DNA of 24,156 nucleotides from Betaproteobacteria bacterium (GTDB taxonomy: Bacteria > Pseudomonadota > Gammaproteobacteria > Burkholderiales > SG8-41). The stretch is taken from assembly GCA_031404395.1 (NCBI GenBank), contig JANNHN010000210.1:1-24156 (forward strand), in the 5' to 3' direction. The notes beneath the pieces were generated by a model. It did no database searches and was not told the origin of the DNA. It was given only the letters and a program-made list of their open reading frames with translations. Position 1 is the first letter of the stretch. Each line of letters opens with the position of its first letter. This document shows, piece after piece, positions 2,996 to 22,840 of this stretch. The translations under genes were made by a program, and so were the position numbers.

Positions 2996-3011
2996 GGCAC
3001 ATGCTCAATAA

Positions 3012-3075
3012 TCTCCCCTCTTCCATCGGGACAAGGGAACACTTGCCGCGAAGCAGAGGGGACGGGGGAGAGGGG
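3012..3075. repeat. REP-like palindromic element in the nuoF-nuoG spacer
   Basis: TCCCCTCT (3014-3021) pairs with AGAGGGGA (3055-3062); TCTCCCC (3012-3018) can alternatively pair with GGGGAGA (3065-3071). Resembles the CCCCTCTCCC...GGGAGAGGGG class of proteobacterial intergenic repeats. Confidence 0.55.
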
Positions 3076-3088
3076 CAATCGCATCGCG

Positions 3089-6155: not shown

Positions 6156-6158
6156 GGA

Positions 6159-6773: not shown

Positions 6774-6783
6774 GAAATTCCGG

Positions 6784-7275: not shown

Positions 7276-7289
7276 GAGTTACCTCTTTC

Positions 7290-7658
7290 TCATTCCCATT
7301 CCAGCGCCCCTTTTTTCCACTCATAGACAAAGCCCACGACCAGAATGGCGAGAAAAAGCATCATGGAAAAGAACCCGAACAGGCCGATTTCCTGCAACAC
7401 CACGGCCCACGGAAACAGGAATGCAATTTCAAGATCGAACAGGATGAACAGGATGGCAACGAGGTAATAACGTACGTCAAAGCGCATGCGTGCGTCTTCG
7501 AAGGCCTCGAAGCCGCATTCGTAGGGTGACAATTTCTGCTGATCGGGACGATGCGACCCGACGACGCGGCTGACGATCCAGCCTGCGGCAATCGGCGCGA
7601 CGCCAAAGGCCAGGCCGACGGCGATGAACATCAGAATCGGAAAGTAACCTTCCAGCAT
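7290..7658 (-). CDS. nuoA: NADH-quinone oxidoreductase subunit A
   Basis: [29 protein letters not shown] and [11 protein letters not shown]. Start placed at ATG 7658 (MLEGYFPIL). Confidence 0.97.
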
Positions 7659-7751
7659 CTGTTGCCTTTTGCGACATTTTCTGAACACCTTGCAGCCCGA
7701 CTTGCCGGCCGCCCCTGCACTGCCCCCTGCACCACTGTCCCGCTGTCAGCC

Positions 7752-7836
7752 TGGTGTCGACGGAGAGACTCGAACTCTCACGGCTTTCGCCACCGCCCCC
7801 TCAAGACGGCGTGTCTACCAATTCCACCACGTCGAC
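7752..7836 (-). tRNA. tRNA-Leu (anticodon GAG)
   Basis: 85-nt minus-strand sequence GTCGACGTGGTGGAATTGGTAGACACG-CCGTC-TTGAGGG-GGCGG-TGGCGAAAGCCG-TGAGAGTTCGAGTCTCTC-CGTCGACACCA. It has a 7-bp acceptor stem, GAG anticodon, long variable arm, TTCGA loop and encoded CCA, at the conserved secG-nuoA position. Confidence 0.97.
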
Positions 7837-7912
7837 ATGACCTGCAGCGGGCCGAAGAACAGATTCCGTGCGATCTGTTTCCGGTTAACTCTGTACCCTT
7901 ATTCCGGTACAT

Positions 7913-8317
7913 CTACTTCGGCACGCCTCCCGCCTGCGATCCGCCATCCGGCACCGGCACGATCGGCAGGACAGGCACCGGCACTGCGGACGCCGGGAGT
8001 TGTGTCGGCGGCGTCGGTATCTGCGACGGTAACGACTGCGACGGCGCTTGCTCGACCGGTTGCGTCATGACGCCCCGGTTATCGCCCTTTTTGCCGGACA
8101 CCACGGTCAAGCCGATGCTCGACACGAAAAAGATCGCAGCAAGAACTGCCGTCGTCCGACTGAGAAAATTCGCCGATCCGGCCGAACCGAACATGCTGCC
8201 CGACGAGCCGCCGCCGAACGCAGCGCCCATGTCGGCGCCCTTGCCATGCTGCAACAGCACCAGGCCGATAATGCCCAGCGCTGCAGCGACGTGTATTACC
8301 AGTATCAGAACTTCCAT
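7913..8317 (-). CDS. secG: Preprotein translocase subunit SecG
   Basis: From ATG 8317: MEVLILVIHV...VLLQHGKGADMGAAFGGGSSGSMFGSAGSANFLSRTTAVLA, followed by a Pro-rich tail; downstream of tpiA. Confidence 0.96.
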   Translation of the reverse strand: MEVLILVIHVAAALGIIGLVLLQHGKGADMGAAFGGGSSGSMFGSAGSANFLSRTTAVLAAIFFVSSIGLTVVSGKKGDNRGVMTQPVEQAPSQSLPSQIPTPPTQLPASAVPVPVLPIVPVPDGGSQAGGVPK

Positions 8318-8336
8318 GTTGATTTCACCTTGCTTT

Positions 8337-9098
8337 TCAAACCTGCTTCGTTCCCGCCGCCGCGCGGCAAATCGCTGTGAACTCTTCCGCAACCAACGAC
8401 GCACCACCGATCAGTCCGCCGTCGATATCGGGCATGGCAAACAACTGCACGGCATTTGCCGCCTTCACGCTGCCGCCATACACAATCCGCACCGCATCGC
8501 CCACCGCCCGGTCCGTAACACGTCCACGGATAAACGCATGTACCGCCTGCGCTTCTTCCGGTGAAGCGGTTTTGCCGGTGCCAATCGCCCACACCGGCTC
8601 GTAGGCAATCACCGCATCACGCAGCGCCGCCACACCACACCGCTGCACCACCGCATCCAGCTGGCGGGCCACGACGCACTCGGTTGCCCCCGCCTCGCGC
8701 TCCGCCAGTGTTTCACCGACGCACAGCACCGGCTGCAAACCGGCCTGCTGTGCCGCCGCAAACTTCTCTGCCACCAGCACATCCGTCTCGCCGAACAAGG
8801 TACGGCGCTCCGAATGTCCGACCAGCACCCACGCACATCCGCAATCGCGCAACATCGCGGCAGACACACCGCCGGTATAGGCGCCGTTACCGTGCTGACA
8901 CAGATCCTGTCCGCCCAGAGTCACGCTGGAACCCTGCAACAGGCGCTGCACCTGGAACAGATACGTATAAGGCGGGCAAACCGCGCAATCCACCCCGGAA
9001 ATCTTTGTCAGGGCAGGAACCAAAACCCGCAGCAGTGCCTCGTTAGACGCGAAACTGCCGTTCATTTTCCAGTTGCCCGCGACGAACTTGACCCGCAT
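8337..9098 (-). CDS. tpiA: Triosephosphate isomerase
   Basis: [26 protein letters not shown] and [12 protein letters not shown]. Start placed at ATG 9098. Confidence 0.98.
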
Positions 9099-9125
9099 CA
9101 CTGATCCGATTTCCAAAACCGTTGA

Positions 9126-9154
9126 ATTTTACCGGCTGCGCTCCCCCCGGTCAA
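9126..9154 (-). promoter_or_regulatory. Sigma70 promoter of tpiA(-secG-tRNA)
   Basis: Minus strand TTGACC (9154-9149), 17-nt spacer, TAAAAT (9131-9126); about 28 nt upstream of the tpiA ATG. Confidence 0.75.
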
Positions 9155-9217
9155 TTTGGATGCGTGCATGCTGCAGCGCGAAAACCTGATGAATTTGAAC
9201 GATTTTTCCGGGGATTC

Positions 9218-9751
9218 TCAATCAGGCATCGCGGCACAGATGCGCTGCACAACGGCAGGCTTGGGCAAATCCACATAAAGGTCTTCGAAAGCCAAAACCT
9301 GCATCGCCCCGACCCGCTCCAGCAGTTCGCCACGCCGCAGCAGGAAATCCGGGTTGGCCGGACGTCCGTACGCCTCATTACCCTCGGCAAACGTTTCGTA
9401 AATCAGCAAGCCGCCGGGGGCTATGGCGGCAATCAGGGCGGGAAACAGCGGCCGGTGCAGATAATTGGTGACGACCACCGCAGCAAACTGCCGGCCGGCA
9501 TAGGGCCAGGGGCCGCCTTCGATATCGGCACACCGCGCGACAACCCCGGGCACGACGGCCAGCGCTGCAATCGCTGCCGCATCACGATCGACTGCATCAA
9601 CCGGGTGTCCGCGCGCCGCGAAAAACCGCGCATGACGGCCACTGCCACAGGCCACATCCAGTATGGCGCCCCCTGCAGGCACACGCTCCGCCCACTGCAC
9701 GACCCACGCCGACGGGATATCCAGCGCAGCGTGGTTGCCTGATCCGGCCAT
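9218..9751 (-). CDS. Class I SAM-dependent methyltransferase
   Basis: Motif I LDVACGSGRH, motif II AVDRD, VVVTNYLHR and GGLLIYETF. Start is ATG 9751 or 9763. Confidence 0.85.
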   Translation of the reverse strand: MAGSGNHAALDIPSAWVVQWAERVPAGGAILDVACGSGRHARFFAARGHPVDAVDRDAAAIAALAVVPGVVARCADIEGGPWPYAGRQFAAVVVTNYLHRPLFPALIAAIAPGGLLIYETFAEGNEAYGRPANPDFLLRRGELLERVGAMQVLAFEDLYVDLPKPAVVQRICAAMPD

Positions 9752-9774
9752 GCGCTGATGCACCCGTGTCGCCG

Positions 9775-10551
9775 TCAGGCCTGCTTCATACCCAGCACGC
9801 TGAAATACGCGTGGCTGCGTGTGGATACCCGGCGATGGCGCAATTCCACCGGTGTCCCGTCATAGGTGTATGCGACGCGTTCAATGGCGAGTACCGCCTC
9901 GCCCGCAGCGATCCCCAGCGCAGCAGCGAGTTTGCTGTCGGCATTGACCGCACGCACCCATTCCTCCACGCGGGTCACCGTGATGCCGAAACGCGTCTGG
10001 TAATAACCAAAGATGGTCATGCCGCGACGGCGAAACGCGGCCTCACGCAAATCAGGGAACACCGCTTGCGGCACCACCATCCGGTCAAAGATAACGGATT
10101 GATCCTGCAGAAACAGCAGGTTTTCAATGCGATACACCGGCGCGCCTCGCATAAGCTGCAGTCGCTGCGCCACGACAGCATCGGCCTTGCCGCGCCGGAA
10201 TGAGATGAGGCGGGTCTCCGGAAATTCCTTGCGCCCGGCGTCGTCAACGATGCGGAAATACGTATCCAGCATGTAATCCCGATTGCGGCTCGCGACAAAT
10301 GTCCCGCGCCCGCGCCGGCGCACCAGCACGCGCTCCGCAACCAGCTCACCGATGGCCTTGCGCACGGTACCCACGCTCACCGCGTAACGCCGCGCGAACT
10401 GGGATTCAGTCGGGATCGCGGCGCCCTGCGGCCACTCGCCCTCCATCAAGCTGCGCGTGATGCGTTTCTTGACCTCGGCGTACAGCGGGCCAGGCAATAC
10501 GCCGCCGGGATCCAGCGTCTCGTCCGCAGTGACTGCTAAATTATCCGGCAT
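9775..10551 (-). CDS. GntR-family (HutC/UTRA subfamily) transcriptional regulator
   Basis: wHTH PLYAEVK...IPTESQFARRYAVSVGTVRKAIGELV...RRRGRGTFV and a UTRA-like C-terminus (LAIERVAYTYDGTPVE). Divergent from the mutase operon. Confidence 0.92.
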   Translation of the reverse strand: MPDNLAVTADETLDPGGVLPGPLYAEVKKRITRSLMEGEWPQGAAIPTESQFARRYAVSVGTVRKAIGELVAERVLVRRRGRGTFVASRNRDYMLDTYFRIVDDAGRKEFPETRLISFRRGKADAVVAQRLQLMRGAPVYRIENLLFLQDQSVIFDRMVVPQAVFPDLREAAFRRRGMTIFGYYQTRFGITVTRVEEWVRAVNADSKLAAALGIAAGEAVLAIERVAYTYDGTPVELRHRRVSTRSHAYFSVLGMKQA

Positions 10552-10731
10552 GAGCCCTGTTGTTCATCGGGGTGGCATGAAAGTGGAATTGCATGAAACA
10601 GGCGGCGCCTCATGGCGCCAACCGGGCGCTTGTTGGTCTGGCAATCAATATATCAGGCGGCACACCAGACACCGCCGTATCTCCGGATCTTGCCGGGTTC
10701 TGGAGTCAGGCGTCGTAAAATAATTTATATT

Positions 10732-10744
10732 AATCAACAAGTTA
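10732..10744 (+). promoter_or_regulatory. Putative IHF binding site
   Basis: AATCAACAAGTTA is a perfect match to WATCAANNNNTTR, with an AT tract (TAAAATAATTTATATT) on its 5' side, in the divergent intergenic region. Confidence 0.6.
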
Positions 10745-10828
10745 TAATAATTCATCCGCTACCCGCATCAGGCAATGATGAATAAAAAACCTGCCTGCAG
10801 TCAATCAATTCATATAGATGAGATAGCT

Positions 10829-10857
10829 TTAATAGATAAGCTGGCATCCGCTACACT
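10829..10857 (+). promoter_or_regulatory. Putative sigma70 promoter of the mutase operon
   Basis: TTAATA (10829-10834), 17 nt, TACACT (10852-10857). RBS AAGGA at 10880-10884 precedes the GTG at 10890. Confidence 0.5.
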
Positions 10858-10889
10858 AATGCCCTGACTTAACGCCAATAAGGAACGTC

Positions 10890-11987
10890 GTGATCGAAAG
10901 TATTACCGTGTTCCGGCTGGCAGTACCGCTGACCAAACCCTATCGCCTCGCGTTCGGTGCAGTCGAACGCTACGACACGCTCATCGTTGAGATGACGGAT
11001 CGTGACGGTCGTCGCGGCCTCGGCGAAGCGACGGTGCTCACTGGCTACACCGACGAAACTATCGACGACTGCTGGCGCGTGGCGAGCGACATTGCGCAGA
11101 AACTCGCGGGCCGTGATCTGCAGGCTGCGCGCTCGCTGCTCCTGGCTCTGGCCGCAACCCATCCCTTCACCGCCACTGCATTCGGCACTGCTGTTGAAAT
11201 GATCGAGGGCAGCAGCTTTTTCGCAATAACGCAAAACACGCCCGTGCCGCTGGTCGGGCTGCTGGATGCCAAGGATGAAGCCGGCCTGCACGCCGAGGCC
11301 GACCGCCTGCTGGCGGAAGGCTACCGCACCTTCAAACTCAAAGTCGGCTTCAACGCCGCTGCCGATATTGAGAAAGTGCGCATGGCGCAACGGGCCGTGC
11401 GCGGTCGTGCCGCCCTTCGCATCGACGCCAATCAGGGTTACACCGCTGAGCAAGGCGTCGCATTCGTGCGCGCACTCGACCCTGCAGGCATAGAACTCTT
11501 TGAGCAGCCTTGCCCCGCCGGCGACTGGGAATCGCATCTCGCAGTAGCCAAAGCGGCCAGTGTGCCGCTGATGCTCGACGAATCGATTTACGGCATGGCC
11601 GATATCGAGAAAGCCGCCACACTGAAGTGCGCAACCTACATCAAACTAAAACTGATGAAGCTCGTCACGCTGGATGCATTGGCGCGCGCATTGGAACGTA
11701 TTCGCGAACTCGGCATGAAACCCGTACTCGGCAACGGTGTTGCCGCCGATCTGGGTTGCTGGCTGGAGAGCCTGGTCGCCGCGCGGCACATCGACAACGC
11801 CGGTGAACAGAACGGTTTTCTCAAGGCAAAAACACCGCTGCTGGCTGAGCCGCTGACTTTCGCAGACGGCGCACTGCAGCTCAAAGCGGGTTATGTGCCC
11901 CAACTCGATCCGGACCATATTGCCCGCTACCGCATCGATACGCTGACCTGCACGGCGCGCGGCGCCATCAAGGGAAGAGCGGCGTGA
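10890..11987 (+). CDS. Enolase-superfamily enzyme, muconate-lactonizing-enzyme (MLE) subgroup; function unknown
   Basis: 365 aa. Capping domain (GLGEA), KxK (TFKLKVG), metal ligands in RIDANQG / FEQP / MLDES, Lys in YIKLKLMK, and GEQNG at strand 8. Does not resemble methylaspartate ammonia-lyase. Confidence 0.88.
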   Translation: MIESITVFRLAVPLTKPYRLAFGAVERYDTLIVEMTDRDGRRGLGEATVLTGYTDETIDDCWRVASDIAQKLAGRDLQAARSLLLALAATHPFTATAFGTAVEMIEGSSFFAITQNTPVPLVGLLDAKDEAGLHAEADRLLAEGYRTFKLKVGFNAAADIEKVRMAQRAVRGRAALRIDANQGYTAEQGVAFVRALDPAGIELFEQPCPAGDWESHLAVAKAASVPLMLDESIYGMADIEKAATLKCATYIKLKLMKLVTLDALARALERIRELGMKPVLGNGVAADLGCWLESLVAARHIDNAGEQNGFLKAKTPLLAEPLTFADGALQLKAGYVPQLDPDHIARYRIDTLTCTARGAIKGRAA

Positions 11988-12976
11988 AAGCGGTCGCCAT
12001 CGCGAAATTCGGCGGCCCCGAGAATCTGCAATGGATGGATTGGCCCGACCCTGTGCCGGCCCAAGGCGAAGCGGTGGTCCGCCTCGATTACGCCGGCATC
12101 AATTTCATCGATATTTACATGCGCAGCGGCCATTACGCGCGCTCCCATACCTATCAGACGCCGCTGCCCATGACCATCGGCATGGAAGGCGGCGGCACCA
12201 TCGCCGCTCTGGGCGCAGATGTTAGCGGCTTCAAAATCGGTGACCGCGTTGCTTATTGCATCGTGCGCGGCAGCTACGCGCAATACGCGGCAGTGCCCGC
12301 GTGGAAACTCGTCAAGATTCCGGACGCCGTGCCGCTGCCGGTGGCCACGACTCTGATGCTCCAGGGCAACACTGCGCATTACCTCTCGCACTCGGCATTC
12401 CCGCTGGCGCCCGGCCATATTTGCCTGGTGCATGCCGGCGCAGGCGGCGTCGGACAACTGTTAATCCAGCTTGCCAAACTGCGTGGCGCGACCGTTATCA
12501 CTACAACAGGCAGCCGGGACAAAGCGGAAATCGCCAAACAGCGCGGCGCCGATCATGTCATCCTGTATCGCGATGTCGATTTCCGCGAGGAAGTCATGAA
12601 CATCACCGGCGGCAAAGGCGTCGATGTGGTCTATGACGCTGTCGGCAAGGACACCATCCACAACAGCATCCGCAGTCTGAGAAAACGCGGACTGTGCGTG
12701 AACTACGGCGGCGCCTCGGGGCTGGTGCAATCGATTGAGCCACTGGAGCTAGCCGAAGCCGGATCGGTATTTTTCACGCGTCCGCACCTTGCCGACTACA
12801 TAGGCACCTCTGAAGAATTGAACGCGCGCGCAGCGGACCTGTTTGCGGCTTACACCGCAGGCAAACTCACCGTCGCCATCGACCGCGAATTTGCACTTGC
12901 CGATGCGGCGGCAGCGCACCGCCATCTCGAAGGCCGCGGCACGCGCGGCAAACTGCTGCTCAAGATGACTCACTGA
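11984..12976 (+). CDS. Zeta-crystallin/quinone-oxidoreductase-like NADPH-dependent MDR oxidoreductase
   Basis: GINFIDIYMRSG, LVHAGAGGVGQLL, GVDVVYDAVG and LEGRGTRGKLLL; no Zn ligands. GTGA overlap with the upstream gene. Confidence 0.9.
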   Translation: MKAVAIAKFGGPENLQWMDWPDPVPAQGEAVVRLDYAGINFIDIYMRSGHYARSHTYQTPLPMTIGMEGGGTIAALGADVSGFKIGDRVAYCIVRGSYAQYAAVPAWKLVKIPDAVPLPVATTLMLQGNTAHYLSHSAFPLAPGHICLVHAGAGGVGQLLIQLAKLRGATVITTTGSRDKAEIAKQRGADHVILYRDVDFREEVMNITGGKGVDVVYDAVGKDTIHNSIRSLRKRGLCVNYGGASGLVQSIEPLELAEAGSVFFTRPHLADYIGTSEELNARAADLFAAYTAGKLTVAIDREFALADAAAAHRHLEGRGTRGKLLLKMTH

Positions 12977-13422
12977 TGACCACCAAACCAAAAACACTCG
13001 TTACCGGCGTCATCGGTTCTGACACCCACATCGTCGGCAACCGCATACTGTCGATGGCACTGGAAAAATCCGGCTACAAAGTGGTCGCGCTGGGCGCCCT
13101 CACCCCTTCCACTGACTTCGTGAAAGCTGCGGTTGAAACCGCCGCCGACGCCATCATGGTGTCCTCCCTCTACGGCCAGGGCGAACTCGATTGCCGCGGC
13201 TTCCGCGAATTGTGCATCGAGGCAGGACTCGACGACATCCTGCTCTACGTCGGCGGCAACCTGATTGTCGGCAAACATCCGTGGCCCACGGTAGAAAAAA
13301 TATTCCTCGACATGGGTTTCGACCGTGCAGCAGCACCCGGCACGCGCGCAGAGACCGTGGCTGAGTGGCTCAACAGGGATTTTGCCGCGCGCGCGCAAGG
13401 CCTGCACCGCGCGCCGGACTAG
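12976..13422 (+). CDS. glmS: Glutamate/methylaspartate-mutase-type B12-binding (sigma) subunit (also called MutS/MamA)
   Basis: GVIGSDTHIVGN (DxHxxG base-off/His-on motif), VSSLYGQGELDC and LLYVGGNLIVGK closely match clostridial GlmS as I recall it. TGATG coupling with the upstream gene. Confidence 0.95.
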   Translation: MTTKPKTLVTGVIGSDTHIVGNRILSMALEKSGYKVVALGALTPSTDFVKAAVETAADAIMVSSLYGQGELDCRGFRELCIEAGLDDILLYVGGNLIVGKHPWPTVEKIFLDMGFDRAAAPGTRAETVAEWLNRDFAARAQGLHRAPD

Positions 13423-13442
13423 TGCCTGTTAACAACCATCCC

Positions 13443-14855
13443 ATGAGCGCCGCGCTGCTGATCGACTTTGGATCGACCTACACCAAGCTGCGTGCCATTG
13501 ACCTCGCCGCGCGCAGCGTACTGGGTGCGGGTCAGGGTCCATCCACCGTGACGACCGACATCACCATCGGCATGAAAGCCGCACTCGCCGATCTCGAGCG
13601 GCACCTGGGTGGCCTGCCAAAGTTCAAGTATCGCCTCGCCTCCAGCAGCGCTGCCGGGGGCTTGCGCATGGTGACCGTGGGACTGGTGCGCGAACTCACC
13701 ACCGAAGCGGCGCGGCGTGCGGCGCTGGGCGCGGGCGCCAAACTTGTCGGCACCTTCGCCTATCGCCTCACAACCGCAGATATCAATAAAATCAATATGT
13801 TATCTCCGGATATCCTGTTGCTGGCCGGCGGCACTGACGGCGGCAACAGCGAAGTAATCATTGCCAACGCCAAAAGTCTGGGACGCGCCGCCTTCAACTG
13901 CCCCATTGTTTACGCCGGCAACCGCGCCGCCGAAGAAGACGCCTGCGCTGCGCTCTCAGGCAAAACGGTGATTGTCGCCGAGAACGTCATGCCGGAATTC
14001 AATGTGCTCAACATCGAGCCGGCGCGCGCGGCCATCCGTCGGATATTCATCGACCGCATTGTCCATGCCAAAGGCATAGACCGCGCACAGGCGGATTTCG
14101 ACGCGGTGCTGATGCCCACGCCGGCCGCCGTCATGGAGGGCGCGCGACTCGTCGCCGACGGCATAGACGGGCGCGGCGGACTGGGGCCTCTGCTCATCGT
14201 CGATCCGGGCGGCGCCACAACCGACGTGCATTCGGTTGCCGACGGTGAACCCGCAGAGAACGCCGTCGCCGTCGGTTTGCCGGAGCCGCGCGTGAAGCGT
14301 ACCGTTGAAGGCGACCTTGGCATGCGCCACAACGCGGCCACCATCGCCGAGGTCGCAGGACTTGACCACATCGCAGCCGATGCGGGACTGAAACCAGAGC
14401 GCGCCTCAGCACTTCTCTCCGCAATCGCCCGCGACGTGGAGCGACTACCGCAGACCACGGAAGAAATCGCACTGGATCTGGCGCTGGCGCGCGCTGCCGT
14501 GAAACATGCCGTCGCCCGCCACTGCGGCACAGTAGAAACGGTGCATACCGTCCACGGCGCGGTCATCGTCCAGCACGGCAAGGATCTGAGCCGCATCAGC
14601 GCCGTCATCGGCACCGGCGGAGCCATCGTCTCCAGCAGCGATCCGTACGCGGTGCTGATGATGACGCTTGCCAATCCGGAATCGCCGTTGTCACTGCGAC
14701 CCAAATCGCCGCGTCTGTTGCTCGACCGTCATTACCTGCTCTACGCTTGCGGCTTGCTGAGTACCGCGGATCCGCAGGCTGCACTGGAACTGGCAACCAA
14801 CCACCTCGAACCGCTCACTGAGGAGAAGCCCCATGAACGCGCCCACTGCGCCTGA
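13443..14855 (+). CDS. glmL: Glutamate-mutase accessory protein GlmL/MutL (actin-like ATPase, putative reactivating factor)
   Basis: From ATG 13443: LLIDFGSTYTK, SSAAGGLRM, DILLLAGGTDGGN, DPGGATTDVHS and KRTVEGDLGMR; lies between the S and E subunits. Confidence 0.92.
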   Translation: MSAALLIDFGSTYTKLRAIDLAARSVLGAGQGPSTVTTDITIGMKAALADLERHLGGLPKFKYRLASSSAAGGLRMVTVGLVRELTTEAARRAALGAGAKLVGTFAYRLTTADINKINMLSPDILLLAGGTDGGNSEVIIANAKSLGRAAFNCPIVYAGNRAAEEDACAALSGKTVIVAENVMPEFNVLNIEPARAAIRRIFIDRIVHAKGIDRAQADFDAVLMPTPAAVMEGARLVADGIDGRGGLGPLLIVDPGGATTDVHSVADGEPAENAVAVGLPEPRVKRTVEGDLGMRHNAATIAEVAGLDHIAADAGLKPERASALLSAIARDVERLPQTTEEIALDLALARAAVKHAVARHCGTVETVHTVHGAVIVQHGKDLSRISAVIGTGGAIVSSSDPYAVLMMTLANPESPLSLRPKSPRLLLDRHYLLYACGLLSTADPQAALELATNHLEPLTEEKPHERAHCA

Positions 14856-16323
14856 CGCAGCAACCCGCCTCCCGCTCTCCGAAACATCAATCCCTGACGA
14901 TGTGTTCCACACCATGCGCCAGGAAAACCTGGCGCGCTGGCCGACCGGAGCAGATGTGGATTTCGACGCGGCTGTCGAGCGCCACCGGACACTGCCCAAG
15001 CACAAGCAACTGGCGTGGGTGATGCGCGAAGCTGACCGCCAACGGCGCTGTCTCACCCAGCCGCGCGGCGGCTGCGCCACCTTCGAGATGCACCGCGCCC
15101 TCATGATCGCGCTCGACCGCGAAGGACTCGCCGACGTGGTGCCGACGACGACCGACAGCTATACGCGCAACGAACAATGGCAACTCGCACAACAAGGCAT
15201 CGATGAATCCGAGAAGGCTGGTCGTTCGCTGCTGAACGGCTATCCGATGGTGAACTACGGCGTCGCAAAAGCGCGCGCGCTGGTGGATGCCATCGACAAA
15301 CCCGCCATCATGCTGACCGGCACTTCCATGCCCAAACTGACCGGTGAAATCGGCTACGCCGGCGGTTACTCGGGTTATCTGGGATCAGGCATTGCCTACA
15401 CCACTTCCTATATCAAGGAACTCACGATCGAGGAAGGCATCCGCAATTACCAGTATCTCGATCGTCTGGTGGCGATGTATCAGGCGCATGGCGTCGAGCT
15501 CCACCGCCGGCAGCCGGGCTTTCTCACCGGCACCAACATTCCGCCTTCAATCGCCATCATCACCTGCGTGCTCGACTGCCTGCTTGCCGCGGGGCAAGGC
15601 GTGAAGAACTACGGACTGGAAATGGGCGAAACGATGCACCTCATCCAGGATGCCGCCGCAGTCGCCGCCTGCCGGGAGCTGTGCCAGGAATATCTCGTGA
15701 AAAAGGGATACCACGATGTATTCACGCCCATCACGCTGCTGCACTGGATGGGCGCCTGGCCGCAGGACGACGCGCAAGCGGCGGCGATCATCAGTTACGG
15801 CGGCACGCTCGCCGCGATTGCCGGCGCGAACAGCGTAACCACCAAGAGCACGCATGAAGCCTATGGCATCCCGACGCCGCAGGCGAACGCGGAAGGTCTG
15901 CGCACGACGCGCACGGCAATCTATCTCGCGCGCAACATCCGGCTCGACTCCATGCCTGAATTCCAGACGGAAAAAGATCTCATCAAGCGTGAAGCCCGGG
16001 CGATACTCGACAAGACGCTGGAAATGGGCGACGGCGATGCGGCCATCGGCACGGTGCGCGCCTTCGAGGCCGGCGTACTCGATGTTCCGTGGTCGCCCAA
16101 CCGCCATGTCAAAAGCCGCGTCATGCCGGCACGTGATATCGACGGCTATCTCCGTATCGTCGACCCCGGGCTTATGCCGTTCCCGAAGGACGTCATGGAA
16201 ATCCATGAAGAACGGCTCCGGCTGCGCGCCGAAAAAGAAGGCGTGGAGTACGGCCATGATCTCGCCGTCTCCAGTGTCTATGAAATGGCGGAGCCGATTG
16301 CGAAACTGCTGCCGGACAAATGA
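14833..16323 (+). CDS. glmE: Glutamate-mutase-like catalytic (epsilon) subunit with a divergent substrate pocket
   Basis: 496 aa. WPTG, QPRGG, DSYTR, ESEKAGRSLLNGYP, LTGT, HWMG, KSTHEA and GTVRAFEAGVLDVP are colinear with clostridial GlmE. RBS AGGAGA; 23-nt overlap with glmL. Confidence 0.93.
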   Translation: MNAPTAPDAATRLPLSETSIPDDVFHTMRQENLARWPTGADVDFDAAVERHRTLPKHKQLAWVMREADRQRRCLTQPRGGCATFEMHRALMIALDREGLADVVPTTTDSYTRNEQWQLAQQGIDESEKAGRSLLNGYPMVNYGVAKARALVDAIDKPAIMLTGTSMPKLTGEIGYAGGYSGYLGSGIAYTTSYIKELTIEEGIRNYQYLDRLVAMYQAHGVELHRRQPGFLTGTNIPPSIAIITCVLDCLLAAGQGVKNYGLEMGETMHLIQDAAAVAACRELCQEYLVKKGYHDVFTPITLLHWMGAWPQDDAQAAAIISYGGTLAAIAGANSVTTKSTHEAYGIPTPQANAEGLRTTRTAIYLARNIRLDSMPEFQTEKDLIKREARAILDKTLEMGDGDAAIGTVRAFEAGVLDVPWSPNRHVKSRVMPARDIDGYLRIVDPGLMPFPKDVMEIHEERLRLRAEKEGVEYGHDLAVSSVYEMAEPIAKLLPDK

Positions 16324-16357
16324 ATGTAGAATCAAAACATAATAAAAGGAGGAAAGC

Positions 16358-17317
16358 ATGAACTTACTGATGAAGGGGCTGGTCCTGATTTTCGTCGCCG
16401 GCTGCGCGCCGGTGCTGGCACAAACGTATCCAACGAAACCGGTGCGCATGGTAATCGGCTTCCCGCCCGGCGGCGGCACCGACATCATCGGCCGCATCGT
16501 CGCGCAGAAACTGGCCGAGGGACTGGGGCAGCAGGTCATCGTCGATAATCGCGGCGGCGCCAGCGGCCAGATTGCCGCTGATCTGGTCGCCAAGTCCCCG
16601 CCCGACGGCCACACGGTGATGATGGCGCATATCGGCGCCATGTCCATCCTGCCGTCGCTGTACCCGAAACTGCCCTACGATCCGGTGCGGGATTTTGCGC
16701 CGATCAGCCTGGTCGCAACCAGCCCCAATCTGGTGGTCGTACATCCATCGCTGCCGGTCAAGAACATCAAGGAATTGATCGCCCTCGCCAAGGCGCGTCC
16801 CGACCAATTGCATTACGCATCGCCGGGGGCAGGCCTGGTACAGCATCTCGCAGGCGAACTGTTCAACCTGCGCGCGAAGGTGAAAATAGTTCACGTTCCG
16901 TACAAGGGCGCCGGCCCTGCCATCGTCGACCTCATCGCCGGCCATGTACAGCTGAGCTTCGATGTGATACCGGCAGCACTTCCCTACGTCAAATCCGGAA
17001 GATTGCGCGCGGTGGCGGTCACCGGCGAAAAACGCACTGCCCTGCTGCCGGATATACCGACCATCAGCGAAAGCGGACTCCCCGGTTTCGATCTTGCCAC
17101 CTGGTGGGGGCTGGTCGCGCCGGCGGCGGTCAACAAAAACATCATCGGGCGTCTGCACGCCGAGACCGTAAAGCTGCTGCCCGGCGTCAAGGATCGCATC
17201 GCCAACGCCGGAGCGGATATCGTGGGCAATTCGCCCGCGGAGTTTGCAGCCTACATACAATCAGAGCGCGAGAAGTACGCGCGCATCGTCAAGGAAGCCA
17301 ACATCAAGATCGATTAG
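16358..17317 (+). CDS. Bug/TctC-family tripartite tricarboxylate transporter substrate-binding protein
   Basis: Signal peptide followed by YPTKPVRMVIGFPPGGGTD, DNRGGASG, HVPYKGAGPA and W-x-G-L-x-A-P; strong RBS AAAGGAGG. Confidence 0.93.
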   Translation: MNLLMKGLVLIFVAGCAPVLAQTYPTKPVRMVIGFPPGGGTDIIGRIVAQKLAEGLGQQVIVDNRGGASGQIAADLVAKSPPDGHTVMMAHIGAMSILPSLYPKLPYDPVRDFAPISLVATSPNLVVVHPSLPVKNIKELIALAKARPDQLHYASPGAGLVQHLAGELFNLRAKVKIVHVPYKGAGPAIVDLIAGHVQLSFDVIPAALPYVKSGRLRAVAVTGEKRTALLPDIPTISESGLPGFDLATWWGLVAPAAVNKNIIGRLHAETVKLLPGVKDRIANAGADIVGNSPAEFAAYIQSEREKYARIVKEANIKID

Positions 17318-17337
17318 CGTATTACTGTTATCGCCGC

Positions 17338-17367
17338 AAAAAAACGGGCGCAAGCGCCCGTTTTTTT
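17338..17367. terminator. Bidirectional Rho-independent terminator
   Basis: A7-CGGGCG-CAAG-CGCCCG-T7 between the convergent bug and hss genes. Confidence 0.9.
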
Positions 17368-17409
17368 GTTGCCGCCCCGACCACATCAACAGGGTCCGCA
17401 TCAACAGTG

Positions 17410-18825
17410 TCAGATCACCCGGATATTCTTGAATTGCCAGGGATCCGAGGTATCCAGATCTTCCGGGAACGGATGGTTGCGGCCCTGCAGCGGCGTCCAG
17501 TCCGAATACGCGCCGACCATCGTGCCGAGATACGGCGCCGCAATTTCCAGTACTCGCCGGAAATCCATGTCGTCCGGATCAATGATGCCGGCGTGTGGAT
17601 TTTCCATGGCCCAGATCACTGCGCCGACTACCCCCGCGGCCACTTGCAGACTGGTCGCATTGTTGTATGGTGCCAGCTTGCGCGCCTCGTGGATCGACAG
17701 CTGCGAACCATACCAGTACGCACCCTTCTTGTGGCCGAGCAGCAACGCGCCCAGTTCATCAGTGCCGTCGGTAATCTCGTCGCGGTACAGCCGCCGTTGT
17801 TCCTGACCCACCCAATGGCGACCCGCAAGTTCATGCACCGACAGCACCGTGTCGTCGCAGGGATGATAGGCATAGTGGCAGGTCGGGCGGTACACCACCC
17901 GGTCGCCGTCGCGCACGGTCAGGTAATCAGATATCGAAATTGCCTCGCCGTGCGTAATCAGAAAACCGTGGAATGCACCCTCGTTGGGCGTCCAGGTGCG
18001 CACGCGCACCGACGCGCCGGGACGATTCAGATAAATCGCCGCCTTGCAGCCAAAATCATGCTCGCGGCCTTCCGGCGGAAAATATTTCTCGTGGCTGCCC
18101 CAACCCAGTTCGCAGGGCTGCGAGCCTTCCCCGATAAAACCGTCCACGGACCAGGTATTCACAAACTCGCCGCGCCGCTTGCGCGGTGAAGCCACCTGGG
18201 TGTCGCGCTCCGAGCAATGAATGCTCTTCACGCCGAGTTCCATGGCCAGTTGCCCCCAGCCGGATTTCGACTGCGGGATATCCGTGCGACCGAGGATGTC
18301 CTGCGAGAGATTGACCAGCGCCTGCTTGACCCAGTGCGAAATCAGGCCGGGATTGGCGCCATGCGTGGGAATGACGGTCGGACCCGCAGGAAATTTCTTG
18401 CGCAACCCCAGCACTTCCTCACGCTGCCCGTAGTTGGAGCGGCGCGACGCCGATACCGACTGATCCGTGTATCCGCCGGCCCACGGCTCAATGCACGAAT
18501 CGAGGTAAAGCACGCCTTTTTCACAGCAGAATTCGATCAGCGCAGAACTCGCCACATCGACCGACAGATTGATCAGGAAATCGCCGCGATCCAGCCGCGA
18601 ATCAAGGATCGCGCGGAAGTTCTCGCGCGTGAGCGGGTTTATTTCGTAACGAATGCCGAACGACTCGGCCTCGGCACGGCCGCGATCATGCCCGGTAATG
18701 ATCGAAATCCGCTCTTTCGGCATGTCGATATGGCGCAGCAACAGCGGCAGAACGCCCTGCGCGACCGAACCGAAGCCGACGAAAACAATGTTTCCCGCGA
18801 ATTTGAAGTGCTTTTTATCTGCCAT
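17410..18825 (-). CDS. hss: Homospermidine synthase
   Basis: 471 aa. Rossmann motif VGFGSVAQG, YLDSCIEPW, HGANPGLISH, EFVNTWSVDGF, YRPTCHYAYHPC and NATSLQV. Confidence 0.93.
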   Translation of the reverse strand: MADKKHFKFAGNIVFVGFGSVAQGVLPLLLRHIDMPKERISIITGHDRGRAEAESFGIRYEINPLTRENFRAILDSRLDRGDFLINLSVDVASSALIEFCCEKGVLYLDSCIEPWAGGYTDQSVSASRRSNYGQREEVLGLRKKFPAGPTVIPTHGANPGLISHWVKQALVNLSQDILGRTDIPQSKSGWGQLAMELGVKSIHCSERDTQVASPRKRRGEFVNTWSVDGFIGEGSQPCELGWGSHEKYFPPEGREHDFGCKAAIYLNRPGASVRVRTWTPNEGAFHGFLITHGEAISISDYLTVRDGDRVVYRPTCHYAYHPCDDTVLSVHELAGRHWVGQEQRRLYRDEITDGTDELGALLLGHKKGAYWYGSQLSIHEARKLAPYNNATSLQVAAGVVGAVIWAMENPHAGIIDPDDMDFRRVLEIAAPYLGTMVGAYSDWTPLQGRNHPFPEDLDTSDPWQFKNIRVI

Positions 18826-19237: not shown

Positions 19238-20662
19238 ATGTCTGCAGTTGAAGTACCGTCCACCTCCGCCGCAGTGCAAACCGTCTCTGCACTGGTTGCA
19301 CGCGCACGCAAAGCGCAGGCTGCAATCACGCACTACACGCAGACGCAGCTCGATGAGCTGGTCACTGCGTCCGGCTGGGCGATCATGGAACCTGCGCGCA
19401 ACAAATTACTGGCCGAAATTGCCGTGCGCGACACCGGCCTCGGCAACGTCGAAGACAAAATCACCAAAAATCACCGCAAGACACTGGGCCTGCTGCGCGA
19501 CCTGCAGGGCGCCATCTCCACCGGCATACTCGCCGAGCTGCCGGAACTGGGCATCACCGAGATCGCGCGGCCGGTCGGTGTGGTTGCCGCTGTCGTGCCT
19601 TCAACCAATCCCGGCGCGACACCCGCCAACAATATCATCAACGCGCTGAAGTGCGGCAATGCCGTCATTCTGTCGCCCTCGCCCAAGGGTTACTCGACGG
19701 CGGCGAAACTGCTGGAATTCATTCATGCCGAATTCGCGCGCATCGGCGCGCCGACCGATCTGGTGCAGACCCTGCCGCATCCGGTCACCAAGGAAAGCTC
19801 CAGCGAGTTGATGAAGCAGTGTGATCTGGTGGTCGTCACCGGTTCGCAGGCCAATGTGCGCGCGGGTTACTCCAGCGGCACGCCGGCGCTGGGCGTGGGC
19901 GCGGGCAATGTCGCGGTGATCGTTGACGACAGCGCCGACTGCGGGGACGCGGCGCAGAAAATCATGCACTCGAAGATTTTCGACAATGCGACGAGTTGCT
20001 CGTCGGAAAACAGTGTCATCATCGATGCCGCGGTTTACGAGCGCATGCTCAAGGCGTTGACCGCAGCCGGCGGCGCGTTGCTGACCGTGGCGGAAAAAGA
20101 AACCCTGCAGAAAACCATGTTCCCCGGCGGCAAACTGTCGCCGGCAGTGACCGCGCAATCCGTAGGCAGAATCTGTGCGGTAGCCGGACTGACGCGCCCC
20201 GAACTCGTCAACGCCAAATGCCTGATGGTCGAGGAATCCGGCACCGGCAAAGCCGCGCCGTTCTCCGGCGAGAAACTGTCACCCGTGCTGACCATTTACA
20301 AAGCGCGTGATTTCGACCACGCGTTTGCCACGCTGCGCGCCATCTACGACTATCAGGGCGACGGCCACTCCTGCGGCATCCACACCACGAACAACGAACA
20401 CATTCGCCGGCTGGGCATGGAAATGACCGTCTGCCGCGTCATCGTCAACCAGGCCCACGCCATCGCCAACGGCGGCAGCTTCGACAACGGCCTGCCGTTC
20501 TCGCTGACCATGGGTTGCGGCACCTGGGGCGGCAACAGTTTTTCCGAGAACCTGAATTACCGGCACTTCATGAACACCACGCGCATCGTGCGTCCCATCC
20601 CGCCGCGCGAGCCGTCTCCCGAAGACATCTTCGGCGCGTACCGCCGGAAATACGGCGCGTGA
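19238..20662 (+). CDS. sauS: CoA-acylating aldehyde dehydrogenase, sulfoacetaldehyde dehydrogenase (SauS)-like
   Basis: WAIMEPARN, KNHRKTLGLLRDL, PSTNPGATPA, catalytic FDNATSCSSENS, PFSGEKLSPVL and NGLPFSLTMGCGTWGGN closely match Cupriavidus SauS as I recall it; paired with a SauT-like ligase. Confidence 0.8.
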   Translation: MSAVEVPSTSAAVQTVSALVARARKAQAAITHYTQTQLDELVTASGWAIMEPARNKLLAEIAVRDTGLGNVEDKITKNHRKTLGLLRDLQGAISTGILAELPELGITEIARPVGVVAAVVPSTNPGATPANNIINALKCGNAVILSPSPKGYSTAAKLLEFIHAEFARIGAPTDLVQTLPHPVTKESSSELMKQCDLVVVTGSQANVRAGYSSGTPALGVGAGNVAVIVDDSADCGDAAQKIMHSKIFDNATSCSSENSVIIDAAVYERMLKALTAAGGALLTVAEKETLQKTMFPGGKLSPAVTAQSVGRICAVAGLTRPELVNAKCLMVEESGTGKAAPFSGEKLSPVLTIYKARDFDHAFATLRAIYDYQGDGHSCGIHTTNNEHIRRLGMEMTVCRVIVNQAHAIANGGSFDNGLPFSLTMGCGTWGGNSFSENLNYRHFMNTTRIVRPIPPREPSPEDIFGAYRRKYGA

Positions 20663-20708: not shown

Positions 20709-21311
20709 ATGAACCCGAACAAAAGCATCGATTTCTTCGAAACACAGTTCCGCAAGCAGGTTGCAGCCGGCGATTTTGCGCTGAACCCGTTCGAGACGGC
20801 CTGCCTGCCCTTCGTGCACGGACGCGTACTGGATTTCGGTTGCGGGCTGGGCAACCTGGCGATCACAGCGGCGCGCCGCGAGCTGGACGTAGTGGCTGTC
20901 GACGCGAGCGAGGCCGCGATCGCGCGTATCAGGAAGACCGCGACGGCTGAACGTCTCCGGATCGACGCGCAATGCGCCGAGATCGGCGGTTACATCATCT
21001 CCGGGCAGTTTGACACCATTGTCGCCATCGGCTTGCTGATGTTCTTCCCGCGGGAAAACGCGCTCGGGTTGCTGTCGCAGATACAGGCACACGTCACTGA
21101 TGGCGGCACGGCGATCGTCAACACGCTGACGGAGGGCACCACCTACATGGGCATGTTCGAACCGGGCCATTACCATCTCTTCGGCAAGAACGAATTGCGG
21201 GATCTGTTCGCAGGCTGGAAGGTTCTGCACTTCGCACACGATAATTTCACCGCACCAGAGGGCGCCACGAAGGCATTCGCGACCATCATCGCGCAGAAGA
21301 ACAATCCCTGA
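20709..21311 (+). CDS. Class I SAM-dependent methyltransferase (TehB-like)
   Basis: 200 aa. VLDFGCGLGN, VVAVDAS, FDTIVAIGLLMF and GGTAIV. Confidence 0.85.
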   Translation: MNPNKSIDFFETQFRKQVAAGDFALNPFETACLPFVHGRVLDFGCGLGNLAITAARRELDVVAVDASEAAIARIRKTATAERLRIDAQCAEIGGYIISGQFDTIVAIGLLMFFPRENALGLLSQIQAHVTDGGTAIVNTLTEGTTYMGMFEPGHYHLFGKNELRDLFAGWKVLHFAHDNFTAPEGATKAFATIIAQKNNP

Positions 21312-21331: not shown

Positions 21332-22840
21332 ATGCGCACCATCCGCCATTACGTCGACATCCGCGCCGCGGAACAGCCCTCCGCCACATGGCTGATCGCA
21401 CCAGAGACCGGTGCCACGATGACTTACGCGCAATTGCAACGCGATTCGCGTGAACTCGGCCGCTACCTGCTCGGTCTGGGACTCAGCAAGGGCGACAAAG
21501 TCGCGCTGATGCTGCACAACGGCTACCAGACCGGCCGCCTGCTGATCGGTGTCATGTATTCGGGATTCACGGTCGCGCCGCTGAACCTGCTGGCGCAACC
21601 TTCGCAACTGGCTTACGTGCTGGAGCACTCCGATACCCGCGTGGTGTTCACCAGCGAGGAATTTGCCGAACGATTGAAAACGGCGCTCGCCGGTATCCAG
21701 CGCGATATCACCGTCATCACCATCGACCCCGATGCGACGGCGCTCTTTGAGCAGGCAACATTGGCCGACAGCGCATTGCCGGAAGTTGCGGAAGCCGACG
21801 ATGCATTGCTGATGTACACCTCGGGCACCACCGGCCAACCCAAGGGCTGCGTACTGTCGCACCGCAGTGTCTGCGCCGGCGGCGAGTACACCAGTGCCGC
21901 ACATGAACTCACCGCAAAAGATCGCGTGCTGTGCGCGATGCCGCTGTACCACATCAACGGCCAGATCGTCACTGCTGTCGCACCGCTGGCTCACGGCGGC
22001 AGCGTGGTCATGCCCCGCCGCTTCAGCGTCAGCAACTACTGGGAACTCGCCACCAGACACCAGTGCACGTGGATCAACGTGGTGCCGACCATCATCGCCT
22101 ACCTGCTCAACGCACCGGATCCGCGCGACCGCGGACTCGACATCTCGCGCGTAAAGTTCTGCCGCTCGGCCTCGGCGCCGCTGCCGCCGGAACTGCACCG
22201 CGCTTTCGAAGACCGTTTCGGCATCGGCATCATTGAAACCTTCGGCATGACCGAGACCAACGCGCCCTGCTTCACCAATCCCATTGATCCAGCCAAACGC
22301 AAGATCGGCAGCCCCGGCACGGCTTTCGGCAATGAAGCCAAGGTCATCGATCCCGCCACGGGAAAAACGCAGCCGCGCGGCACGCCCGGCGAACTGATGG
22401 TACGCGGCGACAACGTGATGACGGGTTATTACAAGGATGCGGGGAACACCGCGAAAACGCTGGAGCCCGACGGCTGGATGCACACCGATGATCTGGGTTA
22501 TATGGACGCCGACGGATTCGTGTTCGTCACCGGGCGCATCAAGGAACTGATCATCAAGGGCGGCGAGAACATCGCGCCGCGTGAAATCGACGAAGCGCTG
22601 CTGAAACACCCCGCTGTACTCGAAGCTGCGGCAGTGGGCATCCCCGACGCCAATTACGGGCAGGACATCATGGCCTGCGTAGTAATCAAACCCGGCCATG
22701 AATGCAGCATCGCCGAACTCATCGAGTTCTCGCAGCAGGAACTCGGCAAGTACAAAACACCCAAGCTCATCAGGTTCGTCAACGACCTGCCCAAAGGCCC
22801 TTCAGGCAAGGTGCAGCGGCTCAAGCTCCTGGATCTGTAG
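21332..22840 (+). CDS. sauT: Acyl-CoA ligase, sulfoacetate--CoA ligase (SauT)-like
   Basis: YTSGTTGQPKG, PLYHING, CTWINVVPTIIAYLLN, FCRSASA, IIKGGENIAPREIDEAL and C-terminal GPSGKVQRLKLL as in SauT. The A7 motif reads TDD instead of TGD. Confidence 0.78.
   Translation: MRTIRHYVDIRAAEQPSATWLIAPETGATMTYAQLQRDSRELGRYLLGLGLSKGDKVALMLHNGYQTGRLLIGVMYSGFTVAPLNLLAQPSQLAYVLEHSDTRVVFTSEEFAERLKTALAGIQRDITVITIDPDATALFEQATLADSALPEVAEADDALLMYTSGTTGQPKGCVLSHRSVCAGGEYTSAAHELTAKDRVLCAMPLYHINGQIVTAVAPLAHGGSVVMPRRFSVSNYWELATRHQCTWINVVPTIIAYLLNAPDPRDRGLDISRVKFCRSASAPLPPELHRAFEDRFGIGIIETFGMTETNAPCFTNPIDPAKRKIGSPGTAFGNEAKVIDPATGKTQPRGTPGELMVRGDNVMTGYYKDAGNTAKTLEPDGWMHTDDLGYMDADGFVFVTGRIKELIIKGGENIAPREIDEALLKHPAVLEAAAVGIPDANYGQDIMACVVIKPGHECSIAELIEFSQQELGKYKTPKLIRFVNDLPKGPSGKVQRLKLLDL

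Follow-up and report, generated by a model that had tools for sequence, protein, structure and literature searches.

Introduction

Only a handful of carbon-skeleton mutases that depend on adenosylcobalamin are known, and glutamate mutase is the textbook case among them. Here, a relative of this enzyme is described that is encoded on a stretch of 24,156 nucleotides of contig JANNHN010000210.1 (GenBank assembly GCA_031404395.1, a betaproteobacterium of the order Burkholderiales), referred to below as the window, with a G+C content of about 61%. The window carries an operon for GlmS-, GlmL- and GlmE-type mutase proteins and for an enolase-superfamily enzyme of the MLE subgroup, called MLE' in the following. 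The GlmE-like protein belongs to a clade that was named LLR after the residues L161, L183 and R226. With a probability that we put at about 0.6, the operon encodes an adenosylcobalamin mutase whose substrate is a sulfonated, non-amino acid and which acts together with MLE' inside a sulfoacetate/sulfoacetaldehyde island.

The closest described system is the glutamate mutase of Clostridium cochlearium (GlmS/GlmE with GlmL, EC 5.4.99.1; structures 1CCW, 1CB7, 1I9C and 6H9E). In glutamate mutase the migrating glycyl unit is held by an upper claw of R66 and R149 and by E171, the contact of the amine, the acrylate half by R100 and Y177, and Y181 contacts the methylene radical; acrylate and a radical fragment are the accepted intermediates (PMC9545868). 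The window enzyme shares with it the three-gene set, the DxHxxG motif and the equivalents of K326/E330 and of R100/Y177/Y181. It differs in that its glycyl subsite has been rebuilt, it falls outside the canonical clade, it is not accompanied by methylaspartase and its neighbours are sulfonate genes. In the pair of glutamate mutase and methylaspartate ammonia-lyase (methylaspartase), too, a B12 mutase works with a member of the enolase superfamily whose reaction starts with alpha-proton abstraction. The partner in the window, however, belongs to the MLE subgroup (KxK and strand-6 Lys), and the group that leaves is probably one other than ammonia.

For sulfoacetate, pathways have been described from Cupriavidus necator (SauT/SauS/Xsc) and from Bilophila wadsworthia (SauCD/SauS with the TTT transporter SauXYZ; PMC10413351). 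Uptake of sulfoacetate by TTT systems is established (PMC10413351). For sulfoacetate (PMC10413351) and for 3-sulfopropionate alike, ligases of the SucCD-like type and TTT receptors are established; very similar gene types act on the latter compound, the degradation of which was stated to be previously unreported (PMC11489063). The loci or genomes of the LLR clade likewise carry SauS past its equivalog cut-off, AMP-forming or SucCD-like ligases, TctC/TctBA, Xsc, Pta and TauE. In a published analysis of the neighbourhoods of sulfoacetate clusters, no gene for a mutase, for B12 or for an enolase-type enzyme is mentioned (PMC10413351), whereas the clade loci add a mutase/MLE cassette. Glycyl radical enzymes that cleave C-S bonds (IslA/IseG, HpsG and HpfG) offer a functional analogy only, in that a radical beside the sulfonate-bearing carbon breaks or shifts the C-S bond; these enzymes have an unrelated fold, are oxygen-sensitive and anaerobic, while the clade enzyme is B12-dependent and occurs in aerobes. 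In the literature searched, no paper linked a GlmE-type mutase to sulfonates and none described the enzyme or the pathway.

Materials and methods

The window protein (P0001) and 80 loci from genome contigs with 68-85% identity to it were combined into a clade set of 81 sequences (68-100% identity). For the neighbourhood survey all open reading frames of the 80 loci were clustered and the recurrent ones were annotated; the 34 loci with at least 5 kb on each side of the gene formed the fully flanked subset. Co-occurrence was analysed in 50 genomes holding the clade enzyme and in an order sample of 201 genomes drawn evenly from the order of the window. The cut-offs of the families used for the GlmE-like protein were 26.6 bits (PF06368) and 390 bits (TIGR01503).

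Results

Active site of the GlmE-like protein

The GlmE-like catalytic subunit of 496 amino acids is encoded on the plus strand at positions 14833-16323 and scored 463 bits with PF06368 and 459 bits with TIGR01503, past both cut-offs. In a phmmer search against all PDB chains its residues 20-485 aligned to GlmE residues 8-473 of 1CCW, 1CB7 and 1I9C without gaps and with an offset of +12 throughout (E = 2.5e-117, about 40% identity over 466 residues). The initial annotation, made from the sequence alone, had proposed this same gapless alignment by eye and had concluded that the pocket is remodelled while the radical machinery is intact; the search bore out the alignment, and every coordinate and residue named there, changed or kept, including the codons at 15313 and 15379, proved correct in the alignment and in the DNA.

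Compared with the C. cochlearium protein, the pocket carries the substitutions R149 to L161, H150 to T162, N170 to Y182, E171 to L183, G173 to S185, E214 to R226, F216 to P228 and H291 to L303, so that HRRQPGF is found in place of NREPFGP and LLHW in place of FHQW. On the plus strand, the codons of Leu161-Thr162, which correspond to Arg149-His150 of the upper arginine claw, lie at 15313-15318 (CTG at 15313-15315, then ACC). Those of Tyr182-Leu183-Gly184-Ser185, in place of Asn170-Glu171-Gly172-Gly173 with the amino-group contact, occupy 15376-15387 (TAT for Tyr182, CTG at 15379-15381 for Leu183 and TCA for Ser185), and Arg226-Gln227-Pro228, which the alignment places opposite Glu214-Pro215-Phe216, are encoded at 15508-15516. 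Retained are Arg66 (R78), Arg100 (R112), Tyr177 (Y189), Tyr181 (Y193), Lys326 (K338) and Glu330 (E342). Given the residue roles described for glutamate mutase (PMC9545868), the substitutions are confined to the subsite of the migrating glycyl unit and the acrylate subsite is intact.

Two hallmarks of glutamate mutase proper are missing from the entire clade. The complete claw of Arg66, Arg100 and Arg149 is broken by leucine at the third position (Leu161 in 81/81), and the amino contact Glu171, which is glutamate in 33/33 canonical clusters, is Leu183 in 81/81. The adenosyl-ribose contacts K338 and E342 are invariant in all 81 sequences, and GlmS, which binds B12, and the partner GlmL are likewise preserved. 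The mutase machinery as a whole, that is, the three proteins and the adenosyl contacts, is thus intact as judged from the sequences, in line with the initial annotation.

New hydroxyl side chains are contributed to the pocket by Tyr182, Ser185 and Thr/Ser162. Two carboxylates are lost (E171 and E214) and three arginines retained, a charge shift of about +2, which would fit a sulfonate or another anionic group at the position of the ammonium group of glutamate. In raw counts among family clusters, R149 was paired with E/D214 in 64/75 and never with R/K214, and R/K at position 214 was seen exclusively where 149 is not Arg. These counts suggest that R149 and E/D214 are joined by a salt bridge in canonical glutamate mutase, and that R226 probably supplies, from a neighbouring strand, the guanidinium group lost with Arg149.

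Conservation and phylogeny of the LLR clade

The clade spans Beta-, Alpha- and Gammaproteobacteria and includes Polynucleobacter and a cultured isolate of the Burkholderiaceae. Among 1.8 billion cluster representatives searched, its own 50% cluster and P0123 (67% identity) stood isolated, all other matches having at most 41% identity; a plasmid collection contained no close member of the clade and only relatives at 41% identity or less. L161, Y182, L183, S185, R226, Q227, P228, F230, L303 and H304 are invariant in 81/81 sequences and position 162 is T or S. Since only 146 of the 466 columns are invariant overall, this pocket pattern is not due to chance.

In a maximum-likelihood tree of 127 sequences the LLR clade was monophyletic with a Shimodaira-Hasegawa-like approximate likelihood ratio test (SH-aLRT) value of 100 and a stem of 0.52. 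With midpoint rooting only, it was placed among non-canonical variants and not within the canonical glutamate-mutase clade, all sequences with the glutamate signature forming one separate clade. This signature is carried by only 33 of the 117 50%-identity clusters of PF06368. Between the 33 canonical clusters and the LLR clade, 13 positions are conserved but different (149, 158, 171, 173, 180, 194, 214, 216, 223, 236, 297, 408 and 469), and 43 are conserved and common to both, including R66, R100, Y177, Y181, K326 and E330. This ratio, together with the conservation throughout the clade, is what would be expected from a change of specificity and not from decay.

The LLR clade is conserved under purifying selection. 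The substitutions are accordingly neither private to the window nor relaxed, L161, L183 and R226 do define a conserved clade, and the view taken in the initial annotation, namely that the enzyme has turned to a substrate lacking the alpha-amino group and has not decayed, was of the right kind. Its picture of a remodelled glutamate mutase has to be revised, because the protein, as its sequence places it, is not a recent remodelling and belongs to the large non-canonical half of PF06368. The remaining clusters of the family (P0123-P0272) show many differing residue sets at positions 149, 150, 171 and 214, and judged by these sequences most of PF06368 is probably not glutamate mutase.

Co-occurrence with sulfonate genes

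SauS was found above its cut-off in 45 of the 50 clade genomes, with two more holding SauS in frameshifted pieces, and Xsc in 43/50. The genome of the window itself encodes Xsc (878 bits, contig C209) and, in the window, SauS (745 bits), both past the equivalog cut-offs. In the order sample the clade enzyme was present in 10/201 genomes, SauS in 25/201, a background of 12%, and Xsc in 31/201; SauS occurred in 10/10 mutase genomes as against 15/191 others. Three genomes of the same genus (L096, L097 and L098; 99% complete) have SauS and Xsc and lack the mutase cassette. When they are compared with positions 7300-17410 of the window, nuoA, tRNA-Leu, a TctC gene, the homospermidine synthase gene and SauS follow in matching order without the GntR-MLE-MDR-GlmSLE block, which marks the latter as a cassette of about 7.7 kb that was gained or lost. 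The dependence hence runs one way: mutase and MLE' are found where the sulfoacetate/Xsc genes are, and not the reverse. Co-location and one-way co-occurrence of the mutase operon with the sulfoacetate set are strong, and the sharing of a metabolite is not thereby demonstrated.

No methylaspartase (PF07476) was detected above cut-off in the genome of the window, which is 83% complete, and none was present among the conserved neighbours of the 80 loci. Isocitrate lyase was found in 27/50 clade genomes, which makes it unlikely that the module serves as a stand-in for the glyoxylate shunt during growth on C2 units.

MLE' (10890-11987, plus strand; Pfam MR_MLE_C/N) is the obligate partner of the clade mutase. 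Orthologues were found in 49/50 clade genomes, and in the order sample MLE' was present at 52% identity or more in 11/201 genomes, 10 of them mutase genomes. The complete genome G123 of the order sample encodes MLE' (52% identity), SauS and Xsc, but a clade GlmE was not detected in it; this genome may break the pairing, or its mutase may be a more distant one. The catalytic motifs of MLE' align to those of YkfB (1TKK), with KxK at strand 2, the D/E/D metal ligands and the strand-6 Lys (FKLKVG, LRIDANQGY, IELFEQP, LMLDES and IKLKLMK), which places the protein in the MLE subgroup.

Gene neighbourhood of the clade

GlmS and GlmL genes lie next to GlmE in every locus where the contig permits. Among the fully flanked loci an MLE-type gene was found in 26/34 and an MDR gene in 18/34; TctA and TctB recurred in 22-28 loci each, and TctC was more widespread. 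At least one of SauS, Xsc and TauE/SafE was located within 8 kb in 17/34 of these loci, frequently in one operon, with scores of 745-783 bits for the SauS equivalog and 932 bits for Xsc (TIGR03457). The gene order is GlmSLE-SauS-SucC'-SucD'-MDR with TauE-MLE nearby in locus L069, and Xsc-MLE-MDR-GlmSLE-TctCBA-...-SauS-ligase in loci L030 and L036. In a streamlined Polynucleobacter genome the genes are arranged in the blocks SauT-SauS-TctC, IclR-Pta-SoeABC, GST-GntR, MLE-MDR-TctC-GlmSLE, Xsc and CobS/CobT. Such a context of SauS, SauT/SauCD, Xsc, TauE and SoeABC points to organosulfonate breakdown and not to C5 dicarboxylates; the substrates proposed in the initial annotation (2-methyleneglutarate, 2-oxo- or 2-hydroxyglutarate and alkyl dicarboxylates) found no support in it.

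In the Polynucleobacter sulfonate island (L092:1-19000; L066), the Pta genes are accompanied by genes of a SoeABC-like sulfite dehydrogenase, the CobS/CobT cobaltochelatase genes adjoin Xsc, and genes for a BKACE enzyme, a GMC oxidoreductase and a SulP permease are also present. Some alphaproteobacterial loci (L049:9613-11853; L054:7150-8157) carry beside GlmE' a BhcA-like aspartate-glyoxylate aminotransferase (589 bits, slightly under the cut-off), a D-2-hydroxyacid dehydrogenase that resembles glyoxylate reductase and an Ldh_2 relative of sulfolactate dehydrogenase.

A distinct gene set resembling succinate dehydrogenase/fumarate reductase (SDH/FRD) adjoins some of the mutase loci and was observed at L076:13012-16905 and on contig C313 (3-1142) of the genome of the window. 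It encodes an Fe-S subunit, a cytochrome b, a TauE-like membrane protein and a flavoprotein, for which TfrA was the best NCBIfam match and which scored under every SdhA/FrdA cut-off. Orthologues of the flavoprotein (at least 63% identity) were found in 42/50 clade genomes and matches at E <= 1e-140 in 47/50; in the order sample it was present in 22/25 genomes with SauS as against only 9/176 others. The set could be a 3-sulfopropanoate dehydrogenase or a sulfoacrylate reductase. The idea that MDR and the SDH/FRD-like complex are alternatives for one step was rejected, as the flavoprotein also occurs in MDR-bearing genomes.

In the nearest variant clade, P0129, the locus L090 contains an MLE-GlmS-GlmL-GlmE core together with MFS and TctBAC transport genes, a non-acylating aldehyde dehydrogenase, a cupin and a second MR_MLE enzyme.

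Organization of the operon and of the window

The mutase operon consists of six co-oriented genes, for MLE', an MDR protein, GlmS, GlmL, GlmE and TctC, and of a divergent regulator gene. The latter (9775-10551, minus strand) encodes a GntR/UTRA protein of the HutC type (Pfam GntR and UTRA), a homologue of which is found at the equivalent place in 9 related loci, and it probably controls the operon. The accessory MDR gene (11984-12976, plus strand; Pfam ADH_N/ADH_zinc_N) encodes a quinone-oxidoreductase-like reductase, with NADPH:quinone reductase as the best NCBIfam match at a score under its cut-off; orthologues were found in 29/50 clade genomes. The GlmS-type B12-binding small subunit (P0002; 12976-13422, plus strand; NF002612, 184 bits, cut-off 110) contains the DxHxxG motif as DTHIVG. 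The GlmL/MutL-type accessory, reactivase-like protein is encoded at 13440-14855 on the plus strand (NF040745, 563 bits, cut-off 475); the listed open reading frame begins at 13365, and homology begins at Met 13440, NF040745 covering residues 30-482 of the long frame. Curated NCBIfam models thus put all three mutase proteins above cut-off as methylaspartate mutase S, L and E, and public sources label relatives of the GlmE-like protein methylaspartate mutase.

The final gene of the operon (16358-17317, plus strand; Pfam TctC) encodes a periplasmic solute receptor of the TctC/Bug type. This receptor, which was compared as a candidate for the ancestral sulfoacetate receptor, is 47% identical both to the SauS/SauT-adjacent TctC of Polynucleobacter and to the TctC at the matching place in the same-genus genomes, and 25% identical to the TctC within the Polynucleobacter mutase operon (L066:5179-6138).

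A homospermidine synthase gene on the opposite strand follows 3' of the operon and precedes the gene for SauS, the acylating sulfoacetaldehyde dehydrogenase (19238-20662, plus strand; NF047625, 745 bits, cut-off 600). An AMP-forming acyl-CoA ligase gene (21332-22840, plus strand; Pfam AMP-binding) belongs to a cluster that also adjoins SauS in loci L023, L027, L030, L036 and L055; its product was assigned by position as putatively SauT-like. A gene for a TehB-like S-adenosylmethionine-dependent methyltransferase of 200 amino acids (20709-21311) sits between SauS and this ligase. The region 626-7836 holds the ordinary neighbours nuoA-G on the minus strand and tRNA-Leu(GAG) at 7752-7836, also on the minus strand, and the C-terminal portion of an AcrB-type efflux pump is encoded at the end of the window (22893-24156). 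An Rfam scan of the window revealed no B12 riboswitch and matched no other family.

Discussion

By analogy, mutase and MLE' likely follow the logic of the methylaspartate pathway, in which a rearrangement brings the leaving group into the position beta to a carboxylate and elimination follows. In the mechanism proposed here, a hydrogen atom of the substrate would be abstracted alpha to the retained carboxylate, and the substrate radical would fragment to acrylate and a radical that bears the sulfonate or consists of it, with subsequent recombination as in glutamate mutase. MLE' would then start from alpha-proton abstraction on the mutase product; most likely it would release sulfite by beta-elimination, in the way that methylaspartase releases ammonia, the alternative being an epimerisation. 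The mutase/MLE' module would represent an add-on to an island comprising the conversion of sulfoacetate via sulfoacetyl-CoA to sulfoacetaldehyde (SauT or SauCD, and SauS), Xsc, Pta and the handling of sulfite.

Three substrates may be considered in order of preference, each of them put forward with doubt and none standing out. Closest by homology would be the conversion of 2-sulfoglutarate to 3-methyl-2-sulfosuccinate. This would match the conversion of glutamate to methylaspartate exactly, except that sulfonate would take the place of ammonium; both carboxylate anchors would be retained, and sulfite would then be eliminated to yield mesaconate. Best by natural occurrence would be a 1,2-sulfonate shift from 3-sulfopropanoate to 2-sulfopropanoate with the sulfonate itself in the glycyl site. 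The alpha-sulfo product could enter the SauT/SauS/Xsc route, which would explain the one-way dependence. In the third place, 4-sulfobutanoate might be converted to 2-methyl-3-sulfopropanoate, from which elimination would give methacrylate for a subsequent reduction. A complete methylaspartate pathway in sulfo form, with dehydrogenase, hydratase and citramalate-type lyase leading to sulfoacetate and pyruvate, was rejected because no conserved hydratase or lyase was present among the neighbours, and also because nothing but MLE, MDR, TctC and GlmSLE is encoded in the minimal operon of Polynucleobacter.

Several observations weigh against a sulfonated substrate or against individual candidates. 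In the literature searched, neither 2-sulfoglutarate nor 4-sulfobutanoate was reported to occur naturally, the compounds appearing at most as synthetic linkers. An enolase-type enzyme alone could free sulfite from any beta-sulfo acid, which leaves the need for a mutase unexplained in the case of 3-sulfopropanoate, and the MDR protein is encoded in only 29/50 clade genomes. Relatedness limits the independence of the genomes, about 4 families accounting for the 10 mutase genomes of the order sample, and SauS and Xsc nearly always occur together in the order; a dependence specific to SauS is for this reason inseparable from a general sulfonate lifestyle or from shared sulfite handling. The nearest variant clade P0129 (L090:5019-17287) has the mutase-MLE pair and no evident sulfonate genes. 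Moreover, the chemistry of the pocket is read here from amino acid sequences. A tree-aware sign test of the arginine swap between positions 149 and 214, with 4 independent pairs on supported branches, showed nothing, its power being too low; of the earlier suggestion that Arg226 is a relocated anchor, the fit to the raw covariation holds, and the test was too weak to show it.

It is possible, if doubtful, that a non-sulfonated C5 dicarboxylate such as 2-hydroxyglutarate, 2-oxoglutarate, 2-methyleneglutarate or glutarate is the substrate on which the clade enzyme acts as a B12 mutase. MLE' would then be a dehydratase or an isomerase, and the sulfonate genes would be neighbours by island formation only. 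Both carboxylate anchors could then be retained (R78, R112 and R226), and glutamate mutase is said to turn over 2-hydroxyglutarate slowly, a finding attributed to Roymoulik et al. (2000). Some loci contain the D-2-hydroxyacid dehydrogenase, BhcA-like aminotransferase and glyoxylate-reductase-like genes mentioned above, and the sister variant P0129 (PF06368, 40% identity, pocket R-R-L-G...I) also joins a mutase to an MLE enzyme without clear sulfonate genes. P0129 resembles the LLR clade in the MLE-GlmS-GlmL-GlmE core, with MLE partners that are 42% identical, and in TTT transport; it is unlike it in that it has Leu149 and Ile171, keeps Glu214 and differs in other pocket residues, its aldehyde dehydrogenase is not SauS and no sulfonate genes were seen. 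A C5 dicarboxylate would leave unaccounted for both the presence of the otherwise rare SauS (12% background) in 45-47 of the 50 clade genomes and in 10/10 of the order sample and the sharing of operons with SauS, SauCD, TauE and Xsc. In addition, the loss of both acidic residues together with the gain of an arginine exceeds what dropping the amino group needs, and with isocitrate lyase in 27/50 clade genomes a glyoxylate-shunt stand-in is not called for. That the protein is still a glutamate (methylaspartate) mutase, with Arg226 in place of Arg149 and with a dispensable Glu171, agrees with TIGR01503, NF002612 and NF040745, all above their curated cut-offs, with the names given to its relatives and with the arginine swap suggested by raw covariation. 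We nevertheless regard this as highly improbable, since Glu171 is the contact of the glycyl amine (PMC9545868) and is Leu in 81/81 sequences as against Glu in 33/33 canonical clusters, since the clade lies outside the canonical one and since methylaspartase was found neither above cut-off in the genome of the window nor in the 80 loci.

Partly overlapping with the reading preferred here is a B12-dependent eliminase or lyase, in which the radical would fragment to acrylate and a sulfite or sulfoacetate radical, the pieces would be released and the MDR protein would detoxify acrylate. Beta-sulfonyl radicals fragment readily, an enoate-type MDR reductase is encoded within the operon, and the release of sulfoacetate would account for the one-way dependence on SauS. 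Acrylate and a radical fragment are, moreover, accepted in glutamate mutase itself (PMC9545868). The family is without precedent for such a reaction, however, the MDR gene is missing from 21/50 clade genomes and the constant enolase-type partner would be left without a clear role, so that a lyase seems quite unlikely. A decaying or non-catalytic paralogue, as might be suspected from the absence of two residues held important for glutamate turnover, is hardly credible in view of the intact reading frames in a tightly packed operon, the identity of 68-85% over three proteobacterial classes with invariant pocket residues and the retention of cofactor contacts and partner proteins.

A mutase for a sulfonated acid acting with MLE' is thus the reading that we prefer. 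Unlikely, though of particular consequence, is the further possibility that the clade catalyses B12 chemistry so far unknown, that is, a radical 1,2-sulfonate shift, for instance from 3-sulfopropanoate to 2-sulfopropanoate, or the cleavage of a sulfonated acid to acrylate and sulfite or sulfoacetate. Such chemistry would give aerobes a route into the Xsc/SauS pathway for sulfonates without described aerobic breakdown.

The LLR clade represents a widespread and strongly conserved relative of glutamate mutase, which occurs in freshwater Polynucleobacter as well as in Proteobacteria of soil, groundwater and marine habitats, the pocket of which appears to have been converted from ammonium binding to, most likely, anion binding and which is embedded in organosulfonate catabolism. 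As the glutamate-binding signature is carried by only 33 of 117 clusters, most of PF06368 is functionally unexplored. If the proposed function is true, a systematic database error would be corrected, since curated models name the proteins of the clade methylaspartate mutase, and a new B12-dependent reaction would be added to the sulfur cycle, by which the availability of B12 would be tied to the turnover of sulfonates.

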